A DNA stretch of 63,932 nt, the filler included. It is 21 parts of 21 records of this genome, joined end to end, with 100 filler letters (N's around TTAATTAATTAA, not from the genome) between each part and the next. Parts side by side here need not be neighbours in the genome. Positions count along the whole stretch, not along the records: positions 26,076 to 30,297 come from SRR36015646_12248; 20 more parts are not named here. One strand, written 5' to 3'. The position numbers and the translations under genes are program-made. Numbering within the stretch: position 1 is the first letter of the stretch; every line of letters begins with the position of its first letter. Under the pieces are notes generated by a model. It had not been told where the DNA came from. It made no database searches and was given only the letters and a program-made list of their open reading frames with translations. Below are positions 11,967 through 42,210 of the stretch, piece by piece.

Positions 11967-14480
11967 TTACAAGCTCTTGAATTTTATCAATCGATCAAGT
12001 TTTTGCCTTTTTGTACGATCTGTTCTTTGATTGTTGAATTCGCGGACGGCATGCGCTTTTCTTAGACCCAAGAATAGTTTAACTATGGACTTGACTAGTA
12101 CGGTTACATGGTTAATAATAGACCCCGATGTTGCCGTCTCCACTGCGTGTGCTGTCAGTGAAAGAAAGAAACGAGAATCCCCTGCTACTTCATAGCACAG
12201 CACTTCCAGCTTCTGTAATTTAAACTGTTCTGTTTTCAAGTGCAGTCTCTTTAAGTCTAAGTAGGCATCAACAATTTTCTCAAATTGTTGTACAAGATGG
12301 CACAAGTTAGAGCTGGGACATGTTAGACCACCACGGTTTTTTATGTTTAGAAGTACAAGGTCTTCCGCGGGTGTGTCTTGAGGGTGTTGTAGTAAACTAC
12401 ACCGGCACTGATCACATGTTAGTGTAGGAATTAACTTGTGGGCAACATATCCGGCAATGTAATTAACAATATTCTTTTTATAGGTGCTAAGTTCATGGGA
12501 TTCAAAGATACCCTGACCAAGTTCAGAGTGAATGGTGACTTCATCAGGGTCGGATGTTTCAGGGTTGCTTTCCACCTGCACGAGCCCAGCTTCCTCGTCA
12601 AGGAGTGTTGCATTTCCATTTTTTGTGTGAACCCCTGCAGGGTTGCTTTCCACCTGCAGGAGCCCATCATGCTCGTCAAGGAGTGTTGAGTTGCCATTTT
12701 TTGTGCGAACCCCTGCACGTGTTAATAACGCACGGTACGCCGATCGGAATCCCATGGCCGTGGGGTTCGTGTTCGCACCCTGCGACTGCCTTACAGAGTT
12801 AAAAAACAGCTCGAGATGGTCTTGTGTGAAGCGATATGTATATATGCAGGACATTCCTTCACTCAACAGCTCCCTACACAAATCAATGGTGCTATTCATT
12901 GTTATTTGGAGACCTACAACACTCAGTCTTCGTGGTGTTTTGTGAGCATATGGTGTTTGGTGAGGTTTTTTCCCTTTACATTTGAGATTTGATAAGACAA
13001 TTTTTGCCCGATCAAATAAAGATTCGGCTTCGGCAATATTGGAATTACATATTGGGTATTTGTATCCATGTGTCATCACTGATCGAGAGTTCAGAACATC
13101 AAATACAGAGTTTATCAACCGACAAAATTCTTCGGTTGTTTCAGACCCCCCAAATGTCACAGGATCGACCTGTCGCATAAATGCAAGGGCATCTGCTGTT
13201 GAAGCACTGAAAATTTGCACAGCTAGTTTGACTTTCATGATTGTGTTTTTAAAATTTATATGACTATCAGATAGTTTGTTTGCAGCTTTTAACCCGGTTG
13301 ATACTTGTGTCTGATGCAGCTCCTCGAAAAACTTAAACTGTATAACCTCATCACCAAGAAAAAGACACTTGTTCTCAGATAAATTGTTACGTATTAGTTT
13401 AATCATGTGACATGTATCAAACATAACATAAATATCATGATTTACACCACTAACGGTTACTTTGTTACAGAGGTTGTGCACATCCATATTTAACCCCATA
13501 GTGTGTAATACTGCCTGGTTAGTTATACACCCATCACAAACTAAAACACGAACACTGACATTTATACTTTCTAATTTCTGAATGCATTTTGTTAAAAGAT
13601 CCAGAAGAATATCCTGTTTTATGTTCTTAACTAAGAAGTATGCAACCGGGATTTTCCAACGACCATTGATACCACATGCCATTAATACAAGGGCATCTGT
13701 TGCCTCTGGTATTTCATCACCCTGCTCACCACCATCACCTAAGTCAACAAACCCAAACATTTTATTTTCCTTGGGACTATACTGTACGTGTCTCTTAATC
13801 TTCATCTCGTCAAAAACAAGAGTACACTTATCATATATATGAGCATTATCAGATTTTAGATAGTTCTCCAACAACTCAATTGCTTCCTTTGTATAGCCTG
13901 GAGAACCATCTATTGTGCTGAGCCAATTTTGAATTGTCCTCTCACATGGCAGAGGAATTTTCATAACATTGCGGACATAGTTGTAGGCTTTTGACGAGTA
14001 ATAACGGAGTGTAACTGCAAGAACGCGCATTTCTGGAGAATAAGTGTTTGTGGATCTGCTGAATGCAGCCATGTCGACATTTTTAAAAATTTCAAATAAC
14101 ATTTTAGATTGATCATCAACAAATTTTAACTTTTCTAGTTCTTGTAAGACGTTCTCCATTTTTTGCGTTTGACGTGCATGGACTTTCCTTGCAGCATCTA
14201 GTTGATGTCGTAGCTTTTCCTCTCTATCTAATGCTTCATACAGGCGCTTCTTAATTGTTCTAGGTGACGGAATGGAATATGTATGATCTAAGGAACAGTA
14301 TGGATCAGGAACAGGTCTTTCAGGAACATCAAAGTCGTCTATTGTGTGATAACTTGGAAAAGAAACTGGATCGTCTATGTACTGGCAATTTGGAGGAGAA
14401 ACTGGCCTGTCTACATTCTGGCAACTTGGAGCAGGAACTGGATTGTCTACATACTGGCAACTTGCAGCAGGAACTGGATT
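11967..14480 (-). CDS. P-element (THAP9-like) transposase; frame open to the contig edge, N-terminus missing
   Basis: YYSSKAYNYVR, LPCERTI, LVFDEMKIK, WKIPVAYF, CDG, FDTCHMIKLIRN, MKVKLAVQIFS, FDVLNS, QDHLELFF, NYIAGYV. The frame continues 107 codons upstream of 14159 through a coiled coil and a DHTY motif. Confidence 0.93.
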   Translation of the reverse strand, partial: NPVPAASCQYVDNPVPAPSCQNVDRPVSPPNCQYIDDPVSFPSYHTIDDFDVPERPVPDPYCSLDHTYSIPSPRTIKKRLYEALDREEKLRHQLDAARKVHARQTQKMENVLQELEKLKFVDDQSKMLFEIFKNVDMAAFSRSTNTYSPEMRVLAVTLRYYSSKAYNYVRNVMKIPLPCERTIQNWLSTIDGSPGYTKEAIELLENYLKSDNAHIYDKCTLVFDEMKIKRHVQYSPKENKMFGFVDLGDGGEQGDEIPEATDALVLMACGINGRWKIPVAYFLVKNIKQDILLDLLTKCIQKLESINVSVRVLVCDGCITNQAVLHTMGLNMDVHNLCNKVTVSGVNHDIYVMFDTCHMIKLIRNNLSENKCLFLGDEVIQFKFFEELHQTQVSTGLKAANKLSDSHINFKNTIMKVKLAVQIFSASTADALAFMRQVDPVTFGGSETTEEFCRLINSVFDVLNSRSVMTHGYKYPICNSNIAEAESLFDRAKIVLSNLKCKGKKPHQTPYAHKTPRRLSVVGLQITMNSTIDLCRELLSEGMSCIYTYRFTQDHLELFFNSVRQSQGANTNPTAMGFRSAYRALLTRAGVRTKNGNSTLLDEHDGLLQVESNPAGVHTKNGNATLLDEEAGLVQVESNPETSDPDEVTIHSELGQGIFESHELSTYKKNIVNYIAGYVAHKLIPTLTCDQCRCSLLQHPQDTPAEDLVLLNIKNRGGLTCPSSNLCHLVQQFEKIVDAYLDLKRLHLKTEQFKLQKLEVLCYEVAGDSRFFLSLTAHAVETATSGSIINHVTVLVKSIVKLFLGLRKAHAVREFNNQRTDRTKRQKLDRLIKFKSL

Positions 14481-21274: not shown

Positions 21275-21937
21275 GTAGCAGGCCTCCTTAACTTCTGTTG
21301 CAGAGTAGTGGTTCCAGGTAGAGCATTTTTACGCAGATTGTACGAGGCAATGTCAGGTGTTACGAAACCACATCATCGCATTAGGGTGACAAATGAAATC
21401 AAAGAGGATTTAATTATGTGGCAAAAATTCTTAGACAGGCATAATGGGAAGTCTATGTTTCTCGAACAACGTTGGGTATGGGCTTCTGCTTTACACCTGT
21501 ACACGGATGCTGCAGGTGCATTTGGTTGTGGCGGAATTTTGGGGAGTCAGTGGTTTGTTGGTGAATGGCCTGATAGCTGGAAAACTTTGAATATAACATT
21601 GTTAGAGTTCTACCCTATTTTGGTGGCAGTACATATTTGGGGGACAACACTATCGAATAGATGTATTGTATTACACACCGATAATGAAGCATTAGTGTCA
21701 ATTATAAACAAGCAATCCTCTCGCGAAAAGTTGGTTATGAAAATGATGAGAATGTTTGTTTTATGCTGTCTCGAAAATAATGTATGTTTTAAAGCAGAAT
21801 TTATACGGGGCTCCACAAATGTATTATCGGATGCTATTTCTCGATTTCAGCTCAATCGATTCCGACATTTGGCACCATGGGCAGATCAAATGCCACAGGA
21901 AATACCACAAGGACTAAGGCCAATAAATATTTTCTAG
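21275..21937 (+). CDS. Ngaro/DIRS-type retroelement RT C-terminus plus RNase H (5'-truncated)
   Basis: PGRAFLRRL, LYTDAAG, ITLLEFYPI, HTDNEA, NVLSDAISR; no methyltransferase follows. Confidence 0.93.
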   Translation, partial: VAGLLNFCCRVVVPGRAFLRRLYEAMSGVTKPHHRIRVTNEIKEDLIMWQKFLDRHNGKSMFLEQRWVWASALHLYTDAAGAFGCGGILGSQWFVGEWPDSWKTLNITLLEFYPILVAVHIWGTTLSNRCIVLHTDNEALVSIINKQSSREKLVMKMMRMFVLCCLENNVCFKAEFIRGSTNVLSDAISRFQLNRFRHLAPWADQMPQEIPQGLRPINIF

Positions 21938-22857
21938 TCGCAAAAAAGCTGCTTAACAGATCCACTGAAAACTCATCCAAGCAGACATACAAACAAGCAT
22001 GGAACATGTACAAAAAATTTTCAAGTGAATTAGGACTGCGTGAAGCAATTTTTCCTGTACCAATTTTCTTGCTATCGGCTTTTATAGGTTATTTGTTTGA
22101 CTTAGGCTTAGCATCAGCATCAATACATACATACACTGCCGCGATTGGAGCAGCACATGCTCTGATTGATGCTCCAGATCCAGTAAAAGCCAAAATCAAT
22201 AAGAAAATACTTGTTGGTGTCCGAAAATCACGACAATCTCGTGACACTCGGCAGCCCGTCTCATACAAAATGTTGAAAAACTTAGTGGACTCAGTAGATC
22301 ATGTATTATGCTCTGCATATAGTAAACACTTGTACAAAACTATGATTTTGTTGGCATTCAAAGCACTGTTACGAATAGGAGAGATGTGTGTCCGAGCAGG
22401 TGTAGGCAAAAACCATACGCTGCAGCGAGATAGTTTGTCTTTTACTTTTGATAAGCAAAAGAAAATAAATGGGTTTCTGCTGACTTTCCACACATTCAAA
22501 CATCACATTAACCTGCATCCTGTTTCTTTATGTATTGGGTTGGAAAGAGATCAGAATTACTGTGTAGTCACAGCCATGCATAAATACCTACTGCTTAGAT
22601 CAAATCAAAGTGGGCCATTGTTTCTAAGTGAGCGCGGGGGAGCTGTGTCATGCTCGGTATTCAATAAGATCCTAAGAAGTTTAGTCGCGTTCATGGGAGG
22701 TGATATTAAAAGAGTTAAATCCCATTCTTTTAGAATTGGTGGGGCCACATATTTAGCTAGCAAGGGGGTCCCAGCCGACCAGATAAAAGCAATGGGAAGG
22801 TGGAAATCGGATGCATACAAAGGATATATCCGCATTCCAAAGTTCAGATTAACATAA
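21877..22857 (+). CDS. Tyrosine recombinase of an Ngaro-type retroelement
   Basis: LLRIGE, HSFRIGGAT, GRWKSDAYKGY (R..HxxR..W..Y); overlaps the end of the RNase H ORF. Confidence 0.95.
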   Translation: MGRSNATGNTTRTKANKYFLVAKKLLNRSTENSSKQTYKQAWNMYKKFSSELGLREAIFPVPIFLLSAFIGYLFDLGLASASIHTYTAAIGAAHALIDAPDPVKAKINKKILVGVRKSRQSRDTRQPVSYKMLKNLVDSVDHVLCSAYSKHLYKTMILLAFKALLRIGEMCVRAGVGKNHTLQRDSLSFTFDKQKKINGFLLTFHTFKHHINLHPVSLCIGLERDQNYCVVTAMHKYLLLRSNQSGPLFLSERGGAVSCSVFNKILRSLVAFMGGDIKRVKSHSFRIGGATYLASKGVPADQIKAMGRWKSDAYKGYIRIPKFRLT

Positions 22858-25691: not shown

Positions 25692-26093
25692 ACAGCGGAT
25701 TATTGTCTAAGAGAACTATAGATTATAGTAGTTCAACTATTGATCTAAAATAAGATGAATATGCAAAAAGTACAGAAAACACAAACATAATTAATTTGAA
25801 TACAAAAAAACTAAGATGCATTTGCCTAAATCTTTATTGAAGACTGCACATATTTTTTACAGTGGTGTAGCAGACCAGTAGCCCTACTCCTCTGGACCGG
25901 CTCCAAGCACTAATGGGTAATATTTAAACTGCGGTCGGTAGACATCTAGAGGCCCGGTCATCGCTACGCTCTGGTNNNNNNNNNNNNNNNNNNNNNNNNN
26001 NNNNNNNNNNNNNNNNNNNTTAATTAATTAANNNNNNNNNNNNNNNNNNNNNNNNNNNNNNNNNNNNNNNNNNNNTTTTATTCTCAACCCAGT

Positions 26094-28871
26094 ATGATGG
26101 CTTCTCGGGCCAGTTTGGCCGCGGCTCCAGTGACGGCTATCCACGGACAGCGCACACGGGAAGACGGAAGCTTAGCAGAATTGAAAGGCCGCTATGCAGC
26201 ATGGAACTCAAGCATAGCCACGTATGTGGCTGAGAAGATGAATCTGGCAGATTCAGACCAAATGAATGACACCGTCGGGATAGATGTGATAGAGGCATTT
26301 TCCCGCGTCCAGGTTTACACCCAGCAAGGATGGTCTGAACTGCTGGCAATCTTATCGGACGTCGAGAGGCAGTTGGATCGATACCGCCTACAAAGACGGG
26401 ACAACATTCGACCAGGTGAGAATCAAGCATACACACGGTTTGTAGATCTCCTCTTAGGCGAATGCCAGGAAATGGTGGACTTCTCTGGGAAATTGGCACG
26501 GATAACCATGTGCCCAACACTAAGAATTCTACTCCAAGCAGGAGAAGCTGACCCAACATACCATGACATCGTCCGGGAAGTCACAAGCAACCCAGCTAGA
26601 CTGGAAGAGAGGGAGGTAGCACTGCTTCAGCACTATGCCCCAAGGGCAGTAGAGTTAGGCCAGGCCATCCGACGAATGAGAAACTTCCAGGAGCAATTGC
26701 TACACCAACAATTCATGGTCAAGTGGAGACCATTGGGAGAAAAACCAAACTCGACAGTGGTACGGGGAAGAAGCCAAGAAAGACGACCCCGAAGAAGTGA
26801 AACCACACGGGCAGACGAATACGAGAGGAGGGCAAGCCGCGTACGGTTCGAGCAAACTGGCAGTGAGGCGTCCAGCAATAGTGAACAACCAACAACAGAA
26901 ACCCGGGACAGAAGACTCTTTGACAGGCACACCAGTCCCGATAGAGGAATAGCCAGTAGATCTGCAGAGAGACAGTCCTATACCACCACCGCAAATGACA
27001 GAGAAAGGCTACGGAGAGAAAGACGGTCAGATAGATGGTTAGAGAGACGGACCTACATGGACTCGTCGGACGACGACATGGCTCCCACGGAAAGGCAAAG
27101 GACATATGGACACCAATTATTAGAGGACAGGATCCAAGGAGAGAGGTATGAAAACAGACATGGACATAGACAGTTTGAGCGACAACCAAGCAACACGGCT
27201 TCAGGTGACTATTTCACCCACCGGACTGAAAGAGAAACTGGACGGCCAGCGCCAACGCGGGATGACGTGACGTGGGGCCTAGAAGATTTAGAGCTGGAGG
27301 ACGCACAGACTGAGAGCCAGGAAGGCGGATCAGCACCACAACCATTCATAAGAGACAATCACTCATTGGGTGCAGGAGAAGAGACAAGGATAAAACAACC
27401 TAGAATCAGCTCCCATAAAAAATACCGGGCTCCCCAACCAGTACCGGCCGAAACACCAAGGCAGCAATGGTACGTAGGGACACCAGAATCGTATATACCA
27501 ACGTGTGTTCCCCAACCCATAGGCTATGGGCAAGGACCAAATACACTTACACAGCGAACGCCGCTCTATACGATGGCTCAACCAACACGGATACCACAAC
27601 ACCTCACCAGTACACCAGGGATCCCAACGGAGCGAACAACACCAATATTCTCTTTAGGCGCACCACCCATGACAGACACGCCAAGAAGACCAAGTGGAAC
27701 CAGGTGGAGACATGCACAAGGAGAACAAGATACTTGGCCTGTAACATATCCCGATGTTCAGAGCCCGATGCCGTATCAAGTCACCGAAGATAGGCCAACA
27801 GTGAGTAGGAGAATACTGACTGCGGGAACGTTCCCACAAGCATGGGTTAAGAAAATGGATGGATTATCAGATTCCCCTTCGGAGGTTCAACTGAAAAAAT
27901 TCTGGACCCAATTCGAAGGCCTAAGAAGGGGTAATACCTATTTCATTACCTACCCAAATGAGGTGTTCACCGTTTTTCTACAGAAGTGTCAACGTGCAGG
28001 AGAGATGTACTCTTGGGCACTGGACAAACTGGAATCGCCCGAATTCCGAAGTCTGGATGGGTCGTACCATAATTGGCCAGTGTTCGCTGAGGCCTTTGAG
28101 GAACGATATGTCCGACCACAACCCGGACGAGTAATGGAGATCAAGCAAGGAGATCGCAGTGTGAGAGAATATTTGTATGCACTGCGGGAGGAGACTAAAT
28201 ATAGCCGCCTCCCTTGCTCAGAAGAACGGCTAAAGGAAATCTTCTTGCATGGATTGAATAACTATCTAAAAGTACATGTGCTAAGCCAGGACATTGAAAG
28301 GAAAAGTCTAGCAGAAACGGAGCAGCTAGCCTACCGACGCGAGCAAGCACAAGAGAATGCCAGGGGCCAGGACCGGTATCAATCAGGACCACAGCAGCCA
28401 CGTCGTGCAAATAATGTTAGGCAAGTACAGATTGCTGAGGACCAACAGGACCAGCGACGCGAGGCAAGTGCCAGAAAGCCGGAGTCAACAGCAAATAATC
28501 AACCCCCCTCAAATGAACAATTGCAAAACGGACCACCATCTCGAGGCAACCAGGTGAGAACAGCACAGGACACAAGACGACCGGAAGGTCAGCGAAACGA
28601 ACGGAGATCCGTACCTAGACCAACCTATCCACCGTGCCCAAAGTGTAATAAGACGAATCATCAAGAAATCGACTGCTGGTCAATCCTATACTGTGAGTTT
28701 TGTAGAGTCTATGGACATCCTACTGAACGATGTTTCGTCCGCCTGAAAAGTGAAGGAAGGAGCTCACATCCGCCCAACAATAGAAATGTGAACAACACTG
28801 ACAACAACAACTCTCGAACCGAGCGCGCATATATGATCCGAGTCGGAGCAGGACCCGGACGGGCCGAATGA
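26094..28871 (+). CDS. Gypsy-like gag (925 aa)
   Basis: Retrotransposon-gag motifs (WPVFAEAFEERY, IKQGDRSVREY, IFLHGLNNYLK) and two CCHC knuckles, CPKCNKTNHQEIDC and CEFCRVYGHPTERC. Confidence 0.85.
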   Translation: MMASRASLAAAPVTAIHGQRTREDGSLAELKGRYAAWNSSIATYVAEKMNLADSDQMNDTVGIDVIEAFSRVQVYTQQGWSELLAILSDVERQLDRYRLQRRDNIRPGENQAYTRFVDLLLGECQEMVDFSGKLARITMCPTLRILLQAGEADPTYHDIVREVTSNPARLEEREVALLQHYAPRAVELGQAIRRMRNFQEQLLHQQFMVKWRPLGEKPNSTVVRGRSQERRPRRSETTRADEYERRASRVRFEQTGSEASSNSEQPTTETRDRRLFDRHTSPDRGIASRSAERQSYTTTANDRERLRRERRSDRWLERRTYMDSSDDDMAPTERQRTYGHQLLEDRIQGERYENRHGHRQFERQPSNTASGDYFTHRTERETGRPAPTRDDVTWGLEDLELEDAQTESQEGGSAPQPFIRDNHSLGAGEETRIKQPRISSHKKYRAPQPVPAETPRQQWYVGTPESYIPTCVPQPIGYGQGPNTLTQRTPLYTMAQPTRIPQHLTSTPGIPTERTTPIFSLGAPPMTDTPRRPSGTRWRHAQGEQDTWPVTYPDVQSPMPYQVTEDRPTVSRRILTAGTFPQAWVKKMDGLSDSPSEVQLKKFWTQFEGLRRGNTYFITYPNEVFTVFLQKCQRAGEMYSWALDKLESPEFRSLDGSYHNWPVFAEAFEERYVRPQPGRVMEIKQGDRSVREYLYALREETKYSRLPCSEERLKEIFLHGLNNYLKVHVLSQDIERKSLAETEQLAYRREQAQENARGQDRYQSGPQQPRRANNVRQVQIAEDQQDQRREASARKPESTANNQPPSNEQLQNGPPSRGNQVRTAQDTRRPEGQRNERRSVPRPTYPPCPKCNKTNHQEIDCWSILYCEFCRVYGHPTERCFVRLKSEGRSSHPPNNRNVNNTDNNNSRTERAYMIRVGAGPGRAE

Positions 28872-30297
28872 CTAGGCCGGGACGGACAAGGGTTTCCGAC
28901 CATGTCTGTCGCTTGGGCCCAAACGGACAAGGAGCTAAAGGCAAATATAAAAATGGAAGACACTCAAAACTGCTGTGAAATGCCCAAAGTCAACAGGCGA
29001 GTTGGAATACTTGTCCACATAGGAAATTACGAAGTTTATGCGCAGCTCGACACCGGCGCTAGTGTGTGCCTGTTGTCGGAAAGATTAGGACAAAACATCA
29101 TTACCAACTTCGAAAGTTACATCTCCCCTCTACCGTCCGAATGGCGGGCCTTCGATATCGAAGGTGAAGAGCTCCACTGTATTGGGAGAATTAAACTTTG
29201 CATCATGTGGCTAAGTCGCCCAACCGTCTGCTCCTTCTTCGTTGTAAATAACCCGGAGCAGAAGAACTTATTTCTCTTGGGACTCGACAGTATTATGGGC
29301 ATAGGAGCGGCAATCGACCTAAGAACACGGACTTTAAGGGACAGCGATTCACTAGGTTCAATAAACAGCACGTGTTTACATTATGGTCTACATGAGCCCA
29401 GGACAGCCAATACGACCACCATAATTAGCACGGATCAATGCCTACTCAGGACCGCTCCCCCAGACAACCTGAATGAAGATACAGGGGTGGCCATAGACAA
29501 CACAGAAATGAACGGCGATATGTTGGTCTTGTCTACCGTATTAGCCGAAATGCAAAAGGAGCTCCTGGCAAGAATAAAGATTGAGACTAGCCAAAGCTGT
29601 TGCCAAATGCCCAACGTAAATATGCAGATCGGAATTTTGGTCAACCTAGGTGACTATGAGGTTTACGCCCAGATCGACACGGGAGCGAGTATTTCGCTGT
29701 TATCATACAACTTGGGATTGGAGATAATTCCCGACTTGGCAAATTATCTCTCGCCTCTGCCACATGGTTGGCGAGCACTCGGAGTAACCGGAGAGGAATT
29801 ACACTGTGTGGGAATGGTAAAAGTGTGCATGAATTGGCTGGACCAACTTACTGCCTGTTCCTTCTTCGTTATCAACAATCCGGCGCAAGACGATATGTTT
29901 CTTTTAGGACTAGACACCATCCTGAAGATGGAAGTAACGGTGGACCTAAAGTACCGAACATTGAGGGATGATGACCTACAAAGATCTAGAGGCTGTACTT
30001 GTCTACATTATGGCCTACATGCCCGACGAGCAGTGAGAACAGTGACGACAGGGTATGAAGGAATACGACCAGATTCACCTAGCCAATGCAGCTCTACGGA
30101 GCCAACCGAAAGGGTGGCAGGGATTAACATAAATGAGAAAGCTACCTGGGATACCGTCGGCCAAGGATTACCGAATGCCTCCAGGGCCGCAAAAGAGACA
30201 CACTGGAATAAAAACGGCCTGCCATCCATTCAGGAAGATGCAGACGAGCACTTAAAGACAAACAAGAACAGAAGCCAAGACAGACCACCCGAGGAGA
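28872..30297 (+). CDS. Tandem double retropepsin (aspartic protease) ORF, in frame with gag, 3'-truncated
   Basis: YAQLDTGASVCLLS...FLLGLD (Asp codon at 29049) and YAQIDTGASISLLS...FLLGLD (Asp codon at 29676). Same frame as gag and separated from it only by TGA 28869-28871. Confidence 0.88.
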
Positions 30298-30694
30298 NNN
30301 NNNNNNNNNNNNNNNNNNNNNNNNNNNNNNNNNNNNNNNNNTTAATTAATTAANNNNNNNNNNNNNNNNNNNNNNNNNNNNNNNNNNNNNNNNNNNNTAG
30401 AAATATTGATACGCACAGGCTGTTAGCTACAAAGATGCCGATAGCATTTCAGTATGCTGTTTTCAAAAATACATCCTTTGTGTGTGGGCGTACATATACT
30501 CATATATAAATAGTCATATGCCCAACCACTAATCCCTATAGTATATACACGCATTATTTTGCAAATATTTATTTCCCTATAGAATATTTTAAGGAATTTA
30601 TTGTTGGACAATGATAATAAATAACGGTGGCTAGAATTATAACATCTGCTATGGTAGTAATATTATGAACTATGCAGTGTAACTGGCGTGTAGG

Positions 30695-38742: not shown

Positions 38743-40089
38743 GTAGGCATCAGATTTCCACCTGCCCATTTCTTTGATATGCTCAACTGGGACTCCTTTG
38801 GAAGCTAGGTATGTGGCGCCGCCGATGCGGAAAGAATGTGATTTAATTCTGCTGGTGTTACCGTGACAAAATTGTGTCACATTTCTCAAAACTTTGTTGA
38901 AAGTTGTTCTGGTTATCGCGTTGGCGTGGTTGTCTAGGAACAGCGGGCCTGGTTTTGAGCCTCTTTGCAGCAGGTACTTACGCAGCGTTTTTACTGTGCA
39001 ATAATTTTCAAGTTTTTCGCATTCCAGATGTAGTGTTACTGGTTGGTGAGCGGTGTAATGCTTGAATTTGCGAAAATTTATAAGGATGCCGCTGAATGCC
39101 CCTCTTTTATTGTAGGTAAAGGTTATGTCACTTAACTGGATTATCTGTTCTGCCCGCTCCTTAGACACAAAGCAAATTTCACCAAGCCGTAACAGTGCCT
39201 TGAATGCTAAAAGGAACATTGCTGAGTACAAATATTTCTCGTAGGATGTTGCTAGGATAGAATTTACAGTGTCTACGAAACGTATGAGCATACTCCGAGA
39301 AATGGGCATGCGCGTATCTGAGGACTGTCTTGTCTTACGTATACCACATAAGATACGTTTATTTATTTTGGCACTTAGTGGGTCTTGTTCATGCGCTAAA
39401 GTGTGTACCGCACTTATGGCACCCATGTATGTTTTTATCGTCGCTGGCGATAGGCCCCTCTCATACAAATACCCGATAAAAGCTGACAGCACAAAACATG
39501 GGATTGGAATAATTGCAGTTTTTAACCCCAGAGTTGTCGAGAACATTTTGTACAGCCGCCATGCTTGCTTATAAGTTTGGCGAGATGAGTTTTCCAAAGA
39601 TTTCCGGATTAACTTCTGTGCTGTGGCAAGATAACCTCTGGCATTATGTATAGAGGGATTGTTTGTGGCACTTTGTCTGCCCACGGAGCCAATCTTCGGA
39701 ATTGATTGACCTGTAAACGAGAAATTAGGTCTGGTAATACATTTTTTTGGCCAGCAATCCAGGTGGACCGGAACAAAATATTCTTTTTTAAACAGTGTAG
39801 TACAAAAAGCCGCATAATTTTCATGGTAGCCTTTTCTTTTGATGTTTGATTGTTTATGACTGACACTAGAGCCTGATTGTCGGTGTGTAAAACTATACAT
39901 CTGTTGGACAAAAATCTTTGCCATAATACCACAGCACAGAAAATTGGATAGAATTCTAAAGCCATTATGTTTAGCGTTTTCCACCACTCGGGCCATTCTC
40001 CCCCAAACCACTCGCTTCCCATAATGCCCCCATATCCCAGGGAGCCAGCAGCGTCCGTGAACAGGTGTAAAGAAGGAGTGGATTGCCAA
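38743..40089 (-). CDS. Tyrosine recombinase of a second Ngaro-type element (conserved part starts near 39620; last residues truncated)
   Basis: LLRLGE, HSFRIGGATYLASKGVP, GRWKSDAY; clearly homologous to the recombinase at 21877-22857. Confidence 0.93.
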
Positions 40090-41423
40090 ACTAGATCGAG
40101 GAAGAGTGACTTGCCGTTATAGTCTTCCAGAAAATTTAACCACATCTTCAGATCTTCTTTTATTTCATTTGTTATTCTGATACGATAGCAGGGTTTAGAG
40201 ATTCCTATCATAGCATTGTACATACGCCGCAGAAACGTACGGCCAGGTAATACCACTTTGCAACAAAAATTGAGTAAGCCTACTAGAGATTGCAGCTGTT
40301 TTAAGGTGGTTTTCTTCATAGTTAATAGAGTTTTGATTAGGAGTCTGCACTTCTGCAACTTCTCTATTGGTAAGCTGGCTTCCATCTTTACACTGTTCAA
40401 TTCAATGCCCAGAAAGACCAACGTAGTGTTGGGACCAACGGTTTTTTCAGGGGCGACTGGGATGCCCAGGTTTTCCAATAATTTTAAGAAAGAATGTAAC
40501 TGCTTCTGGCAAATCTCTCCTTGTGGTGGGCCTACTATTAAAAAATCGTCTAAAACGTGGACCATTGACTTGATACCTAGTTTTGTTTTGGCTATCCATT
40601 CCACCGAACTACTTAGACTTTCAAAAGAGCGACAAGCGGTACTGAGGCCCATTGGCATGACCCGATCAAAAAACATTTGGCCACCGCACATAAAACCGAG
40701 TAAATAGTAATCATCTGGGTGGATTGGTAAAAGGCGGAATGCTGATTTGATATCTGTTTTTGCCAGTTTGGCCCCTTTCCCCCTCTTTAAAATTTCTTTA
40801 ATAGCATCATCGATTGTTGCGTAGGATACCCGGCAGTACTTTTCATTAATACCCGAATTTACAGAATTACCGTCATGTGGGTAAGATAGATGGTGAATTC
40901 GCCTGTATTCCCCTGGTGTGTGTTTTGCTACGACCCCTATCGGACTGATTACAAAAGGATCCAATGGTGGTGCATTGAATGGACCAGCTATTCGACCTAG
41001 ACTTATTTCCTGGTTAATTTTATCTATGAGAAAGTTTTTGTGGTCGAGGGCTGATTTTAAGTTATGTGCTCTCATACATGTGTGTGTTCCTACATAATGT
41101 ACGCGAAAGCCAGAGGTTAGGTTTTTGATTAGATCAAATTTCAGTTGTTTGTCGTAACCTGTGAGAAATTCATTGAGTATGTTTACTTTGATTGGTGTTG
41201 GTAACTTGTCTCCCGCTTTTAACGGTGCTGGTCTGCCCAAGCTTGTTACTACCCATGTGTTTTTGGATGAAATGGGTGTTTCTGCCTTCAGGTAAGTACT
41301 GTCCCCCCCTTGGGCCTTTAATATGTGGGAACCGGCAGCCGAGACCATACGAGCAGAAACCCTTTTCTGCGAATTGGTGGCAAGTGCCCCTCCCAGACTT
41401 AATTGTGCTTTGCATGGGGCCAC
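39609..41423 (-). CDS. Ngaro-type RT-RNase H
   Basis: LPTPIKV, ISPIGVV, IHHLSYP, AKTDIKSAFR, MPMGL, HVLDDF, LFTDAAG, HTDNQ. Confidence 0.95.
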   Translation of the reverse strand: MAPCKAQLSLGGALATNSQKRVSARMVSAAGSHILKAQGGDSTYLKAETPISSKNTWVVTSLGRPAPLKAGDKLPTPIKVNILNEFLTGYDKQLKFDLIKNLTSGFRVHYVGTHTCMRAHNLKSALDHKNFLIDKINQEISLGRIAGPFNAPPLDPFVISPIGVVAKHTPGEYRRIHHLSYPHDGNSVNSGINEKYCRVSYATIDDAIKEILKRGKGAKLAKTDIKSAFRLLPIHPDDYYLLGFMCGGQMFFDRVMPMGLSTACRSFESLSSSVEWIAKTKLGIKSMVHVLDDFLIVGPPQGEICQKQLHSFLKLLENLGIPVAPEKTVGPNTTLVFLGIELNSVKMEASLPIEKLQKCRLLIKTLLTMKKTTLKQLQSLVGLLNFCCKVVLPGRTFLRRMYNAMIGISKPCYRIRITNEIKEDLKMWLNFLEDYNGKSLFLDLVWQSTPSLHLFTDAAGSLGYGGIMGSEWFGGEWPEWWKTLNIMALEFYPIFCAVVLWQRFLSNRCIVLHTDNQALVSVINNQTSKEKATMKIMRLFVLHCLKKNILFRSTWIAGQKNVLPDLISRLQVNQFRRLAPWADKVPQTIPLYIMPEVILPQHRS

Positions 41424-42210
41424 GAAAATTTCTCCCCCCCTGGTTGTTCCGAAAATTGACCGTGTTCCGTGTACCGGTAGTAAAATTTCTCGGCCTTGTT
41501 AGCCCTACCTCAGCTTTGCTCAAGGCGAAAGCCCAGACTTCTAAATTTACTCTATCCCAGGGGAAGCCTTCTATGGCTTCTGCTCGTAGCTTGCGGAATT
41601 CTATGTCATACTGGTGCCAAGCGGTTCCTTTAAAACTGTAATGCATTTGTCTGATGCGGCTCATATACTTGATGAGTGCTTGCGCTTCACGTGGGAATTT
41701 TTGCAAGAATAGGGCCAAGTACACATTGAAAGCAGAAGTCCATTGCCCGATTCCCAAAAGTTTACCTCCCTGGTTACATCTAGGGCCTACTGTTAAAATC
41801 TGCTGACCCCCCACAAATTTCAAGATTAACTGTTTCCCCTCCTCGAAATCATCATCTTCCGGCCCTTTATCCTTGGGCAGGAGATCGAACATATCAACAA
41901 ATTCATTGTTAACTACTTTATCCCTAATTTTTTGAGAGACATGAGAGTAAATAGTACCATGACACACTGCTTTAGTTCCTGTAGCTATCCCTGTTAACTC
42001 GACGAGTTCCTCCTGTACTATCCTCTCTCCTCCTAACTCCAGTTCTTTCTGAATGGCTTCCCCGGCGCTTACTTCCATGTCGATGGGCTCGCTGGTTGTA
42101 CCAGCCGAAAACAGGTCCGCGTGGGTCATACCTGCGGGCTGCGGTGTTGTGACAGGTGCCTTCATTGTTTCTACAGTAGCGGTGAGTGAAACAATCGATT
42201 CCTGCAAGGA
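41170..42210 (-). CDS. Ngaro-type gag-like ORF1 with CCCH finger (5'-truncated)
   Basis: EFVDMFDLL, WTSAFNVY, WHQYDIEFR, CHQFAEKGFCSYGLGCRFPH; overlaps pol. Confidence 0.88.
   Translation of the reverse strand, partial: SLQESIVSLTATVETMKAPVTTPQPAGMTHADLFSAGTTSEPIDMEVSAGEAIQKELELGGERIVQEELVELTGIATGTKAVCHGTIYSHVSQKIRDKVVNNEFVDMFDLLPKDKGPEDDDFEEGKQLILKFVGGQQILTVGPRCNQGGKLLGIGQWTSAFNVYLALFLQKFPREAQALIKYMSRIRQMHYSFKGTAWHQYDIEFRKLRAEAIEGFPWDRVNLEVWAFALSKAEVGLTRPRNFTTGTRNTVNFRNNQGGRNFRGPMQSTIKSGRGTCHQFAEKGFCSYGLGCRFPHIKGPRGGQYLPEGRNTHFIQKHMGSNKLGQTSTVKSGRQVTNTNQSKHTQ

Follow-up and report, generated by a model that had tools for sequence, protein, structure and literature searches.

A candidate UGA readthrough site between a gag-like reading frame and a tandem retropepsin-like protease in a divergent retroelement contig

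RESULTS

A single in-frame stop codon separates gag from a duplicated protease

The window analyzed here is a 63,932-base stretch of DNA in which 21 contigs of 2.0 to 5.1 kb each are joined; it is not one locus. The joins are N44-TTAATTAATTAA-N44 linkers (for example, 25976–26075 and 30298–30397), and no open reading frame (ORF) or repeat should be traced through them. The tenth contig (26076–30297; 4222 nt) carries a gag-like ORF that ends at a UGA codon and, in the same frame, two retropepsin-like protease domains. We describe this stop codon as a candidate site of programmed translational readthrough at the gag/protease boundary of a retroelement.

The gag-like ORF (26094–28868, + strand) runs for 925 codons from an ATG-ATG. 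Its frame has no stop between that ATG and the contig start at 26076, 18 nt ahead, and the true gag start may lie upstream of 26094. Pfam Retrotrans_gag aligned to residues 656–722 with 22.1 bits, below its cut-off of 24.1, and the best gag-wide phmmer match (P0011, E = 3.7e-5) is a protein with Retrotrans_gag, Ty3_capsid, and zf-CCHC domains. Toward its 3′ end, the ORF encodes a pair of CCHC zinc knuckles of the nucleocapsid (NC) type (28635–28733, + strand), in which C-X2-C-X4-H-X4-C occurs twice, each time exactly (28635–28676 and 28692–28733). We also observed that the ORF is unusually long (at least 925 codons; 26094–28000 region), that some 600 N-terminal residues match no family, and that Arg, Thr, Pro, Glu, and Ser abound in residues 201–600.

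The site reads GCC GAA TGA CTA GGC and continues CGG GAC GGA CAA, in agreement with a preliminary description of this DNA, with the stop codon at 28869–28871 and CTAG at 28872–28875. The recoding context GAA TGA CTA G (28866–28875, + strand) is unfavorable for termination, with UGA followed by C, CUA, and CUAG and an A-rich −1/−2. The downstream ORF continues in the gag frame (28872–30296, + strand) and is open for 475 codons without reaching a reverse transcriptase (RT). The preliminary description gave at least 475 codons; the run is indeed open for that length, but only the contig end at 30297 cuts it off, and 475 codons reflects truncation rather than natural length. This is the single in-frame stop in a frame of 1401 codons, with no further stop or frameshift across 4.2 kb. 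Because the gag and protease ORFs share one frame, frameshifting is not needed to join them. The stop follows the second CCHC knuckle by 45 codons and precedes the protease unit by 10. With gag knuckles upstream and proteases downstream, it thus sits where gag(NC) canonically meets protease in a retroelement.

The window contains 15 stop-terminated ORFs of at least 250 codons, which end in TAA (10), TAG (3), or TGA (2). Only the gag-like ORF among them ends in TGA-C. The transposon ORFs of the window show a strong preference for TAA. A small hairpin, AGUCG...UGACU (28841–28873), appears in an 80-nt fold and pairs the stop codon with a segment 25 nt to its 5′ side; during translation, the ribosome would melt it.

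The UGA might not act as a stop at all. It could encode selenocysteine, be a sense codon in the host's genetic code, or stem from a base-calling or assembly error. A stop-proximal hairpin can aid redefinition of UGA to selenocysteine, as in SEPN1 (PMC3159437), and a single-base error is possible in a short contig. We rejected selenocysteine, as no selenocysteine insertion sequence or other Rfam family reached threshold in the contig, with the 3′ untranslated region lying off the contig. An alternative genetic code was likewise rejected, given that the 1401-codon frame holds one TGA only. Furthermore, UGA is not a general sense codon here, because the window has ORFs of up to 1172 codons without an in-frame TGA and another ORF that ends in TGA. 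We consider it very improbable that the UGA is anything other than a stop.

The downstream frame encodes two diverged retropepsin-like domains

Protease domain 1 (PR1; 28902–29420, + strand) is retropepsin-like, with DTGAS at 29049–29063, FLLGLD at 29271–29288, and CLHYGLH at 29373–29393. Protease domain 2 (PR2; 29529–30047, + strand) is its paralogue at an offset of 627 nt, with the same three motifs at 29676–29690, 29898–29915, and 30000–30020. The domains are 36 residues apart, and the contig ends 83 codons past PR2. The preliminary description placed a protease after gag. That protease is retropepsin-like and is a tandem pair rather than a single domain.

Over 173 aligned codons, PR1 and PR2 are 55% identical in amino acids and 62% identical in nucleotides. 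Identity at codon positions 1, 2, and 3 is 73, 75, and 39%, and the proportions of nonsynonymous and synonymous differences are 0.265 (pN) and 0.76 (pS, saturated). The codon-position pattern and the pN/pS contrast show that both copies have long been under purifying selection in the frame that continues gag. The downstream frame is thus truly coding.

The proteases are divergent. Pfam protease families matched the downstream ORF below their cut-offs. Among relatives of solved structure, yeast DDI1 came closest (E = 0.0044). In the database, P0012 and P0037 stand nearest; both pass the Pfam cut-off as RVP proteins, and P0037 continues into RVT_1. Profile searches with an alignment of PR1, PR2, and P0012 returned one match each, P0037 (longer) and P0012 itself (near). 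In the ESM Atlas, all matches were to generic retropepsin clusters (0.88 to 0.90), with low recognition of 1861. Another database protein, P0027, which is not in the window, shows a doubling that is not tandem: this 1413-residue Ty3/Gypsy-type polyprotein has two separate retropepsin domains, at residues 152–251 before the RT and at 1071–1158 between RNase H and the integrase zinc domain.

A single-sequence AlphaFold2 model of the tandem protease was unusable, with a mean predicted local distance difference test (pLDDT) score of 31.3. Prediction of PR1 and PR2 as a complex, made without alignments of our own, gave a score of 0.68 (runs of 0.71, 0.66, and 0.68), against 0.00 for the best of three controls. 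In calibration, 51 of 78 solved complexes reached the mark, as did 2 of 108 mismatched pairs. The runs shared at least 49% of their contacts, with a partner pLDDT of at least 61. The tightest predicted contacts join the DTG loops (residues 50–52 of PR1 with 49–51 of PR2) and residues 137–140 of PR1 with 136–139 of PR2. As predicted, PR1 and PR2 resemble the dimer of a retroviral protease. Note that this does not imply binding itself: because retropepsin dimers have been abundantly solved, the score may reflect memory.

Two alternative RNA folds are predicted 3′ of the stop

A stem 3′ of the stop had been proposed to pair GACGGACA (28881–28888) with TGTCTGTC (28903–28910) after a spacer of 9 nt. 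We confirm this inner helix, which has 8 bp including one G-U pair and a stability of −13.9 kcal/mol on its own. The proposed GGCC/GGCC extension also forms, with 28875–28878 paired to 28916–28919 in the minimum free energy (MFE) fold, as part of an outer helix of 28875–28879 with 28912 plus 28916–28919. The two helices make up a local hairpin (28875–28919, + strand), whose 3′ arm meets the next ATG (28902–28904), as had also been described.

The local hairpin is unusually stable. A 57-nt fold has an MFE of −23.9 kcal/mol (z = −2.58), and 3 of 200 dinucleotide shuffles were as stable. The 45-nt window at 28875 is the most stable of 4178 such windows in the contig (−22.9 kcal/mol versus a mean of −6.6 and a standard deviation of 3.5), and the hairpin region ranks first in the contig at window sizes of 30, 40, 50, 60, and 80 nt. 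We also recoded the sequence synonymously with the ORF's own codon usage. For the 17 codons of the local hairpin, 0.5% of 3000 recodings were as stable, or 0.2% when CTA was kept fixed.

The stem-loop of the preliminary description has a rival in an extended stem-loop (28884–29016, + strand) that begins 12 nt after the stop. It consists of four helices of 7, 7, 7, and 8 bp (28884–28890 with 29010–29016, 28894–28900 with 29001–29007, 28903–28909 with 28993–28999, and 28911–28918 with 28982–28990), with pair probabilities of 0.74 to 1.0 once at least 150 nt downstream are folded. Its MFE is −41.0 kcal/mol (z = −2.89), a stability reached by none of 200 shuffles and by 1.0% of 1000 synonymous recodings. 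The spacers of both candidates, 9 and 12 nt, are within the 7- to 12-nt range of known readthrough stems (PMC3159437). The local hairpin and the extended stem are equally supported, and either may be the real fold.

The corresponding stretches of PR2 show no unusual fold, with z scores of −0.34 (68 of 200 shuffles as stable) and −1.51 (18 of 200). The structure thus belongs to the stop-adjacent copy and not to the encoded protein. Rfam gave nothing at gathering score in the contig, and only three chance matches to snoRNAs (E = 1.3 to 6) within 28700–29100. By eye only, a pseudoknot is possible between the loop GGGUUU (28891–28896) and GGGCCC (28915–28920).

The ATG at the hairpin arm (ACC ATG T; 28902–28904, + strand) lies in frame, 10 codons past the stop, and it raises another explanation. 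The protease ORF could be made separately from this AUG, by termination-reinitiation or from a transcript that is spliced or internal, which would give an unfused PR-PR(-Pol). Foamy viruses express Pol unfused, and reinitiation is used by some non-LTR (long terminal repeat) elements. Here, the AUG lies 31 nt past the stop with an A at −3, and the duplicated protease unit begins with it. However, its U and G take part in base pairs in either candidate fold, and Met 28902 need not be a start, because the equivalent codon of PR2 is Leu. Reinitiation after a 925-codon ORF would need special signals; none is evident, although no search aimed at such signals was made. Separate initiation would also leave the UGA-CUAG context unexplained. 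We regard it as improbable.

The position and context of the stop fit random nonsense mutation poorly

The only serious rival is that the stop is a private nonsense mutation in a normally single-ORF gag-pro-pol, for example from CGA to TGA at a methylated CpG, with CTAG and the fold both coincidental. Single-ORF Ty3/Gypsy elements are common, and the one-ORF arrangement is one of three strategies (PMC10085805). We modeled every single-base change that creates a stop in the 1401-codon frame (619 to 620 changes), weighting transitions twofold and CpG transitions tenfold. Changes that yield TGA-CTAG make up 0.3 to 1.2% of the nonsense mutational weight, and changes in the NC-protease linker 3 to 4%. 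Even with a CGA ancestor at tenfold weight, the exact site carries approximately 1% (10 of 998); with other ancestors, it carries 0.1 to 0.2%. Random nonsense mutation is therefore a poor fit to the position and context of this stop.

Several results weigh against programmed readthrough. First, the stop and its context were read from one sequence, and our searches found neither a second copy nor a relative. Comparison of the contig with the other 20 by blastn and tblastn found no related sequence. A word-indexed protein search with readthrough residues 640–1150 gave no match among 8000 scored candidates of lengths 770 to 2452. An exhaustive phmmer search of 1.84 billion representatives with a 762-residue query across the junction gave 35 matches at E ≤ 1e-3 (best 9.8e-8, and none at E ≤ 1e-10). 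Of these, 33 map to gag, 5′ of the stop and for the most part to the knuckles, and two map to the protease; no match extends across the stop. Scans of genome contigs gave seven matches to the protein pattern, with no confirmed locus, and no match to the DNA pattern.

Second, the structural case has its own weak points. The two candidate folds exclude each other, and the local hairpin has a pair probability of 0.0 when at least 150 nt downstream are folded. Among 133-nt windows of the contig, the extended stem ranks no higher than fifth, and 2.9% of windows reach its stability. Shuffle z scores near the stop are weaker at other lengths (−1.83 for 80 nt, −1.41 for 69 nt, and −1.78 for 150 nt), and a local GC content of 67%, versus 50% for the contig, accounts for part of the stability. 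At 8 bp, the inner helix is shorter than the 10- to 14-bp stems described in PMC3159437.

Third, the contig has no RT, integrase, or LTRs, which makes an intact, active element no more than a possibility and the "Gypsy" label of the preliminary description no more than plausible. CGA-to-TGA change at CpG is also a common mutation, and the ORF has 27 CGA codons with a CpG observed/expected ratio of 0.77, which, together with the single copy seen, counts in favor of a private nonsense mutation.

Such a mutation would nonetheless need three coincidences: a position at the boundary, an optimal context, and the contig's best structure, kept by codon choice. The fold is absent from the paralogue, and 4.2 kb contain no second stop or frameshift. 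We thus judge a private nonsense mutation unlikely. A stop that is selected rather than accidental is favored by its position in the linker, the UGA-CUAG context, the contig-best fold, the recoding result, and the lack of a fold in the paralogue. The same linker position, UGA-CUAG match, and unusual 3′ structure support the preliminary description in its proposal of programmed readthrough.

The companion contigs are rich in transposons

At 0.496, the GC content of the contig is the highest of the 21; the others range from 0.36 to 0.45. The companion contigs carry LINE-like ORFs (long interspersed nuclear elements) with endonuclease and RT, a P-element/THAP9-like transposase, a pogo/Tc5 transposase, DIRS-like units with tyrosine recombinase, two Ty3/Gypsy pol fragments, an ankyrin ORF, and an F-box ORF. 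The source genome is transposon-rich and animal-like.

The P-element/THAP9-like transposase ORF (11970–14480, − strand) spans 837 codons without interruption and has a match to each of the five TNP-like/THAP9 Pfam domains (E = 7e-43 to 3.6e-14). This copy may have been active recently or have been domesticated. The DIRS-like units at 21793–22854 (+ strand) and 38743–41498 (− strand) have tyrosine-recombinase (Phage_integrase) ORFs, one of which adjoins an overlapping RT ORF.

DISCUSSION

We propose that the UGA at 28869–28871 is a programmed readthrough site at the gag/protease boundary, which would yield Gag together with a minor Gag-PR-PR(-Pol) product. On the combined analysis, we put the probability of this reading at roughly 0.78. 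The contig would represent the 5′ part of an LTR-retroelement-like unit, in the order gag, UGA, protease-protease, with pol presumably beyond the contig end. Most ribosomes would terminate at the UGA and release Gag. A minority would decode the UGA with a near-cognate tRNA, GAA-UGA-CUAG being a poor context for termination. With the stop in the A site, an RNA structure 9 to 12 nt downstream would sit at the mRNA entrance of the ribosome; either the local hairpin or the extended stem may act there. Ribosomes that read through would keep the frame and make Gag-PR-PR(-Pol), an outcome that would fix a low ratio of enzyme to structural protein.

The contig has two features of Ty3/Gypsy elements: a Gag with a capsid-like region and CCHC knuckles, and a retropepsin-type protease after gag. 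Membership of that group is plausible from these encoded features. A readthrough strategy has already been published for Ty3/Gypsy elements. In the fission-yeast elements Tosmo1–3, Tcry1, and Tj1, an in-frame TGA lies between gag and pol within 8 strictly conserved nucleotides, GAA-TGA-CT(A/G) (PMC10085805), and removal of the stop from Tj1 abolishes transposition (PMC4600332). The conserved GAATGACT is identical to 28866–28873 here, and these elements likewise have a single in-frame TGA between Gag and a protease-first Pol. This likeness is one of stop context and layout. The differences are considerable: here, the companion contigs are animal-like (P-element/THAP9-like, DIRS-like, and LINEs), gag is far longer (at least 925 codons), and the protease is duplicated. 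A 3′ RNA structure is computed for our contig, whereas none is mentioned for Tj1, Tcry1, or Tosmo1–3 in the passages of PMC10085805 consulted. In our analysis, the contig is a well-formed example of the published strategy with the same 8 nt, not a new strategy.

The same context recurs in cellular genes and in viruses. Four mammalian genes with efficient readthrough, OPRL1, OPRK1, AQP4, and MAPK10, carry the UGA-CUAG motif and share these 7 nt with our site (PMC4132726). UGA-CUA alone gives 1.5% readthrough, and OPRL1, which adds further 5′ and 3′ signals, gives about 31% (PMC4132726). In these cellular genes, the product is a short C-terminal extension, whereas here, it would be a mobile-element enzyme module. 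UGA-CUA is also a consensus in alphaviruses and plant viruses, where UGA-CUA or UGA-CGG is combined with a stem that begins 7 to 12 nt past the stop and spans ~100 to 150 nt (PMC3159437). The extended candidate at 28884–29016 shares this anatomy. However, the viral stems have 10 to 14 pairs with one bulge or none, and covariation and mutagenesis support them (PMC3159437), in contrast to the four predicted helices of 7 to 8 bp here. Some alphaviruses show a mix of TGA and CGA at the readthrough codon (PMC3159437).

In-frame stops before protease also occur in other retroelements. In the Dictyostelium element Skipper, a stop separates gag from the protease ORF. Skipper is cited as an in-frame-stop example (Leng et al. 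1998) in PMC10085805; its recoding site is not described in the passages of PMC5911963 consulted. Gammaretroviruses make Gag-Pol through an in-frame stop (PMC5009743, PMC3159437). Like our contig, murine leukemia virus (MuLV) has its stop between gag and pro-pol, with structured RNA ~8 nt downstream, and makes little Gag-Pol (PMC3159437, PMC5009743). It differs in relying on UAG with a compact pseudoknot, whereas our site has UGA with a primary-sequence context; the signal is not of the MuLV type.

We consider the tandem protease a more unusual feature than the leaky stop. Together with the extended stem-loop as a rival fold, it is the part of this contig most worth attention. Proteases of LTR retroelements are described as single-domain enzymes that are active as homodimers, and pepsins are thought to descend from duplication of such a single-domain form (PMC2642776). 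A homodimeric single-domain retropepsin has one domain per polyprotein, whereas our contig has two in tandem. Among the papers listed by searches of open-access text, none was on a natural tandem retropepsin in a retroelement, which is weak evidence of novelty, and the passages of PMC2642776 consulted mention duplication only in connection with the origin of pepsin. A tentative idea, to which we give less than even odds, is that the readthrough product is a natural single-chain retropepsin, in which the two diverged DTG domains pair as retroviral subunits do and the tandem protease is co-adapted with the leaky stop.

If programmed readthrough is confirmed, then the GAA-UGA-CUA(G) gag-pol design would extend past fission-yeast Ty3/Gypsy elements to a very divergent retroelement among animal-type transposons. 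This would argue that the short context is a portable recoding signal, either convergently reused or very ancient. The contig would also offer a compact natural test case for context and 3′ structure, with a local and an extended fold in competition. If the single-chain protease proves true as well, then a rare Gag-PR-PR molecule could be an active protease with no need to meet a second Gag-Pol. Very low readthrough would be tolerated, as dimerization would no longer be limiting, and the element would preserve, as a living intermediate, the presumed duplication step behind two-lobed pepsins. A fused protease pair bears both on the origin of two-lobed aspartic proteases and on how protease activation relates to Gag-Pol stoichiometry.

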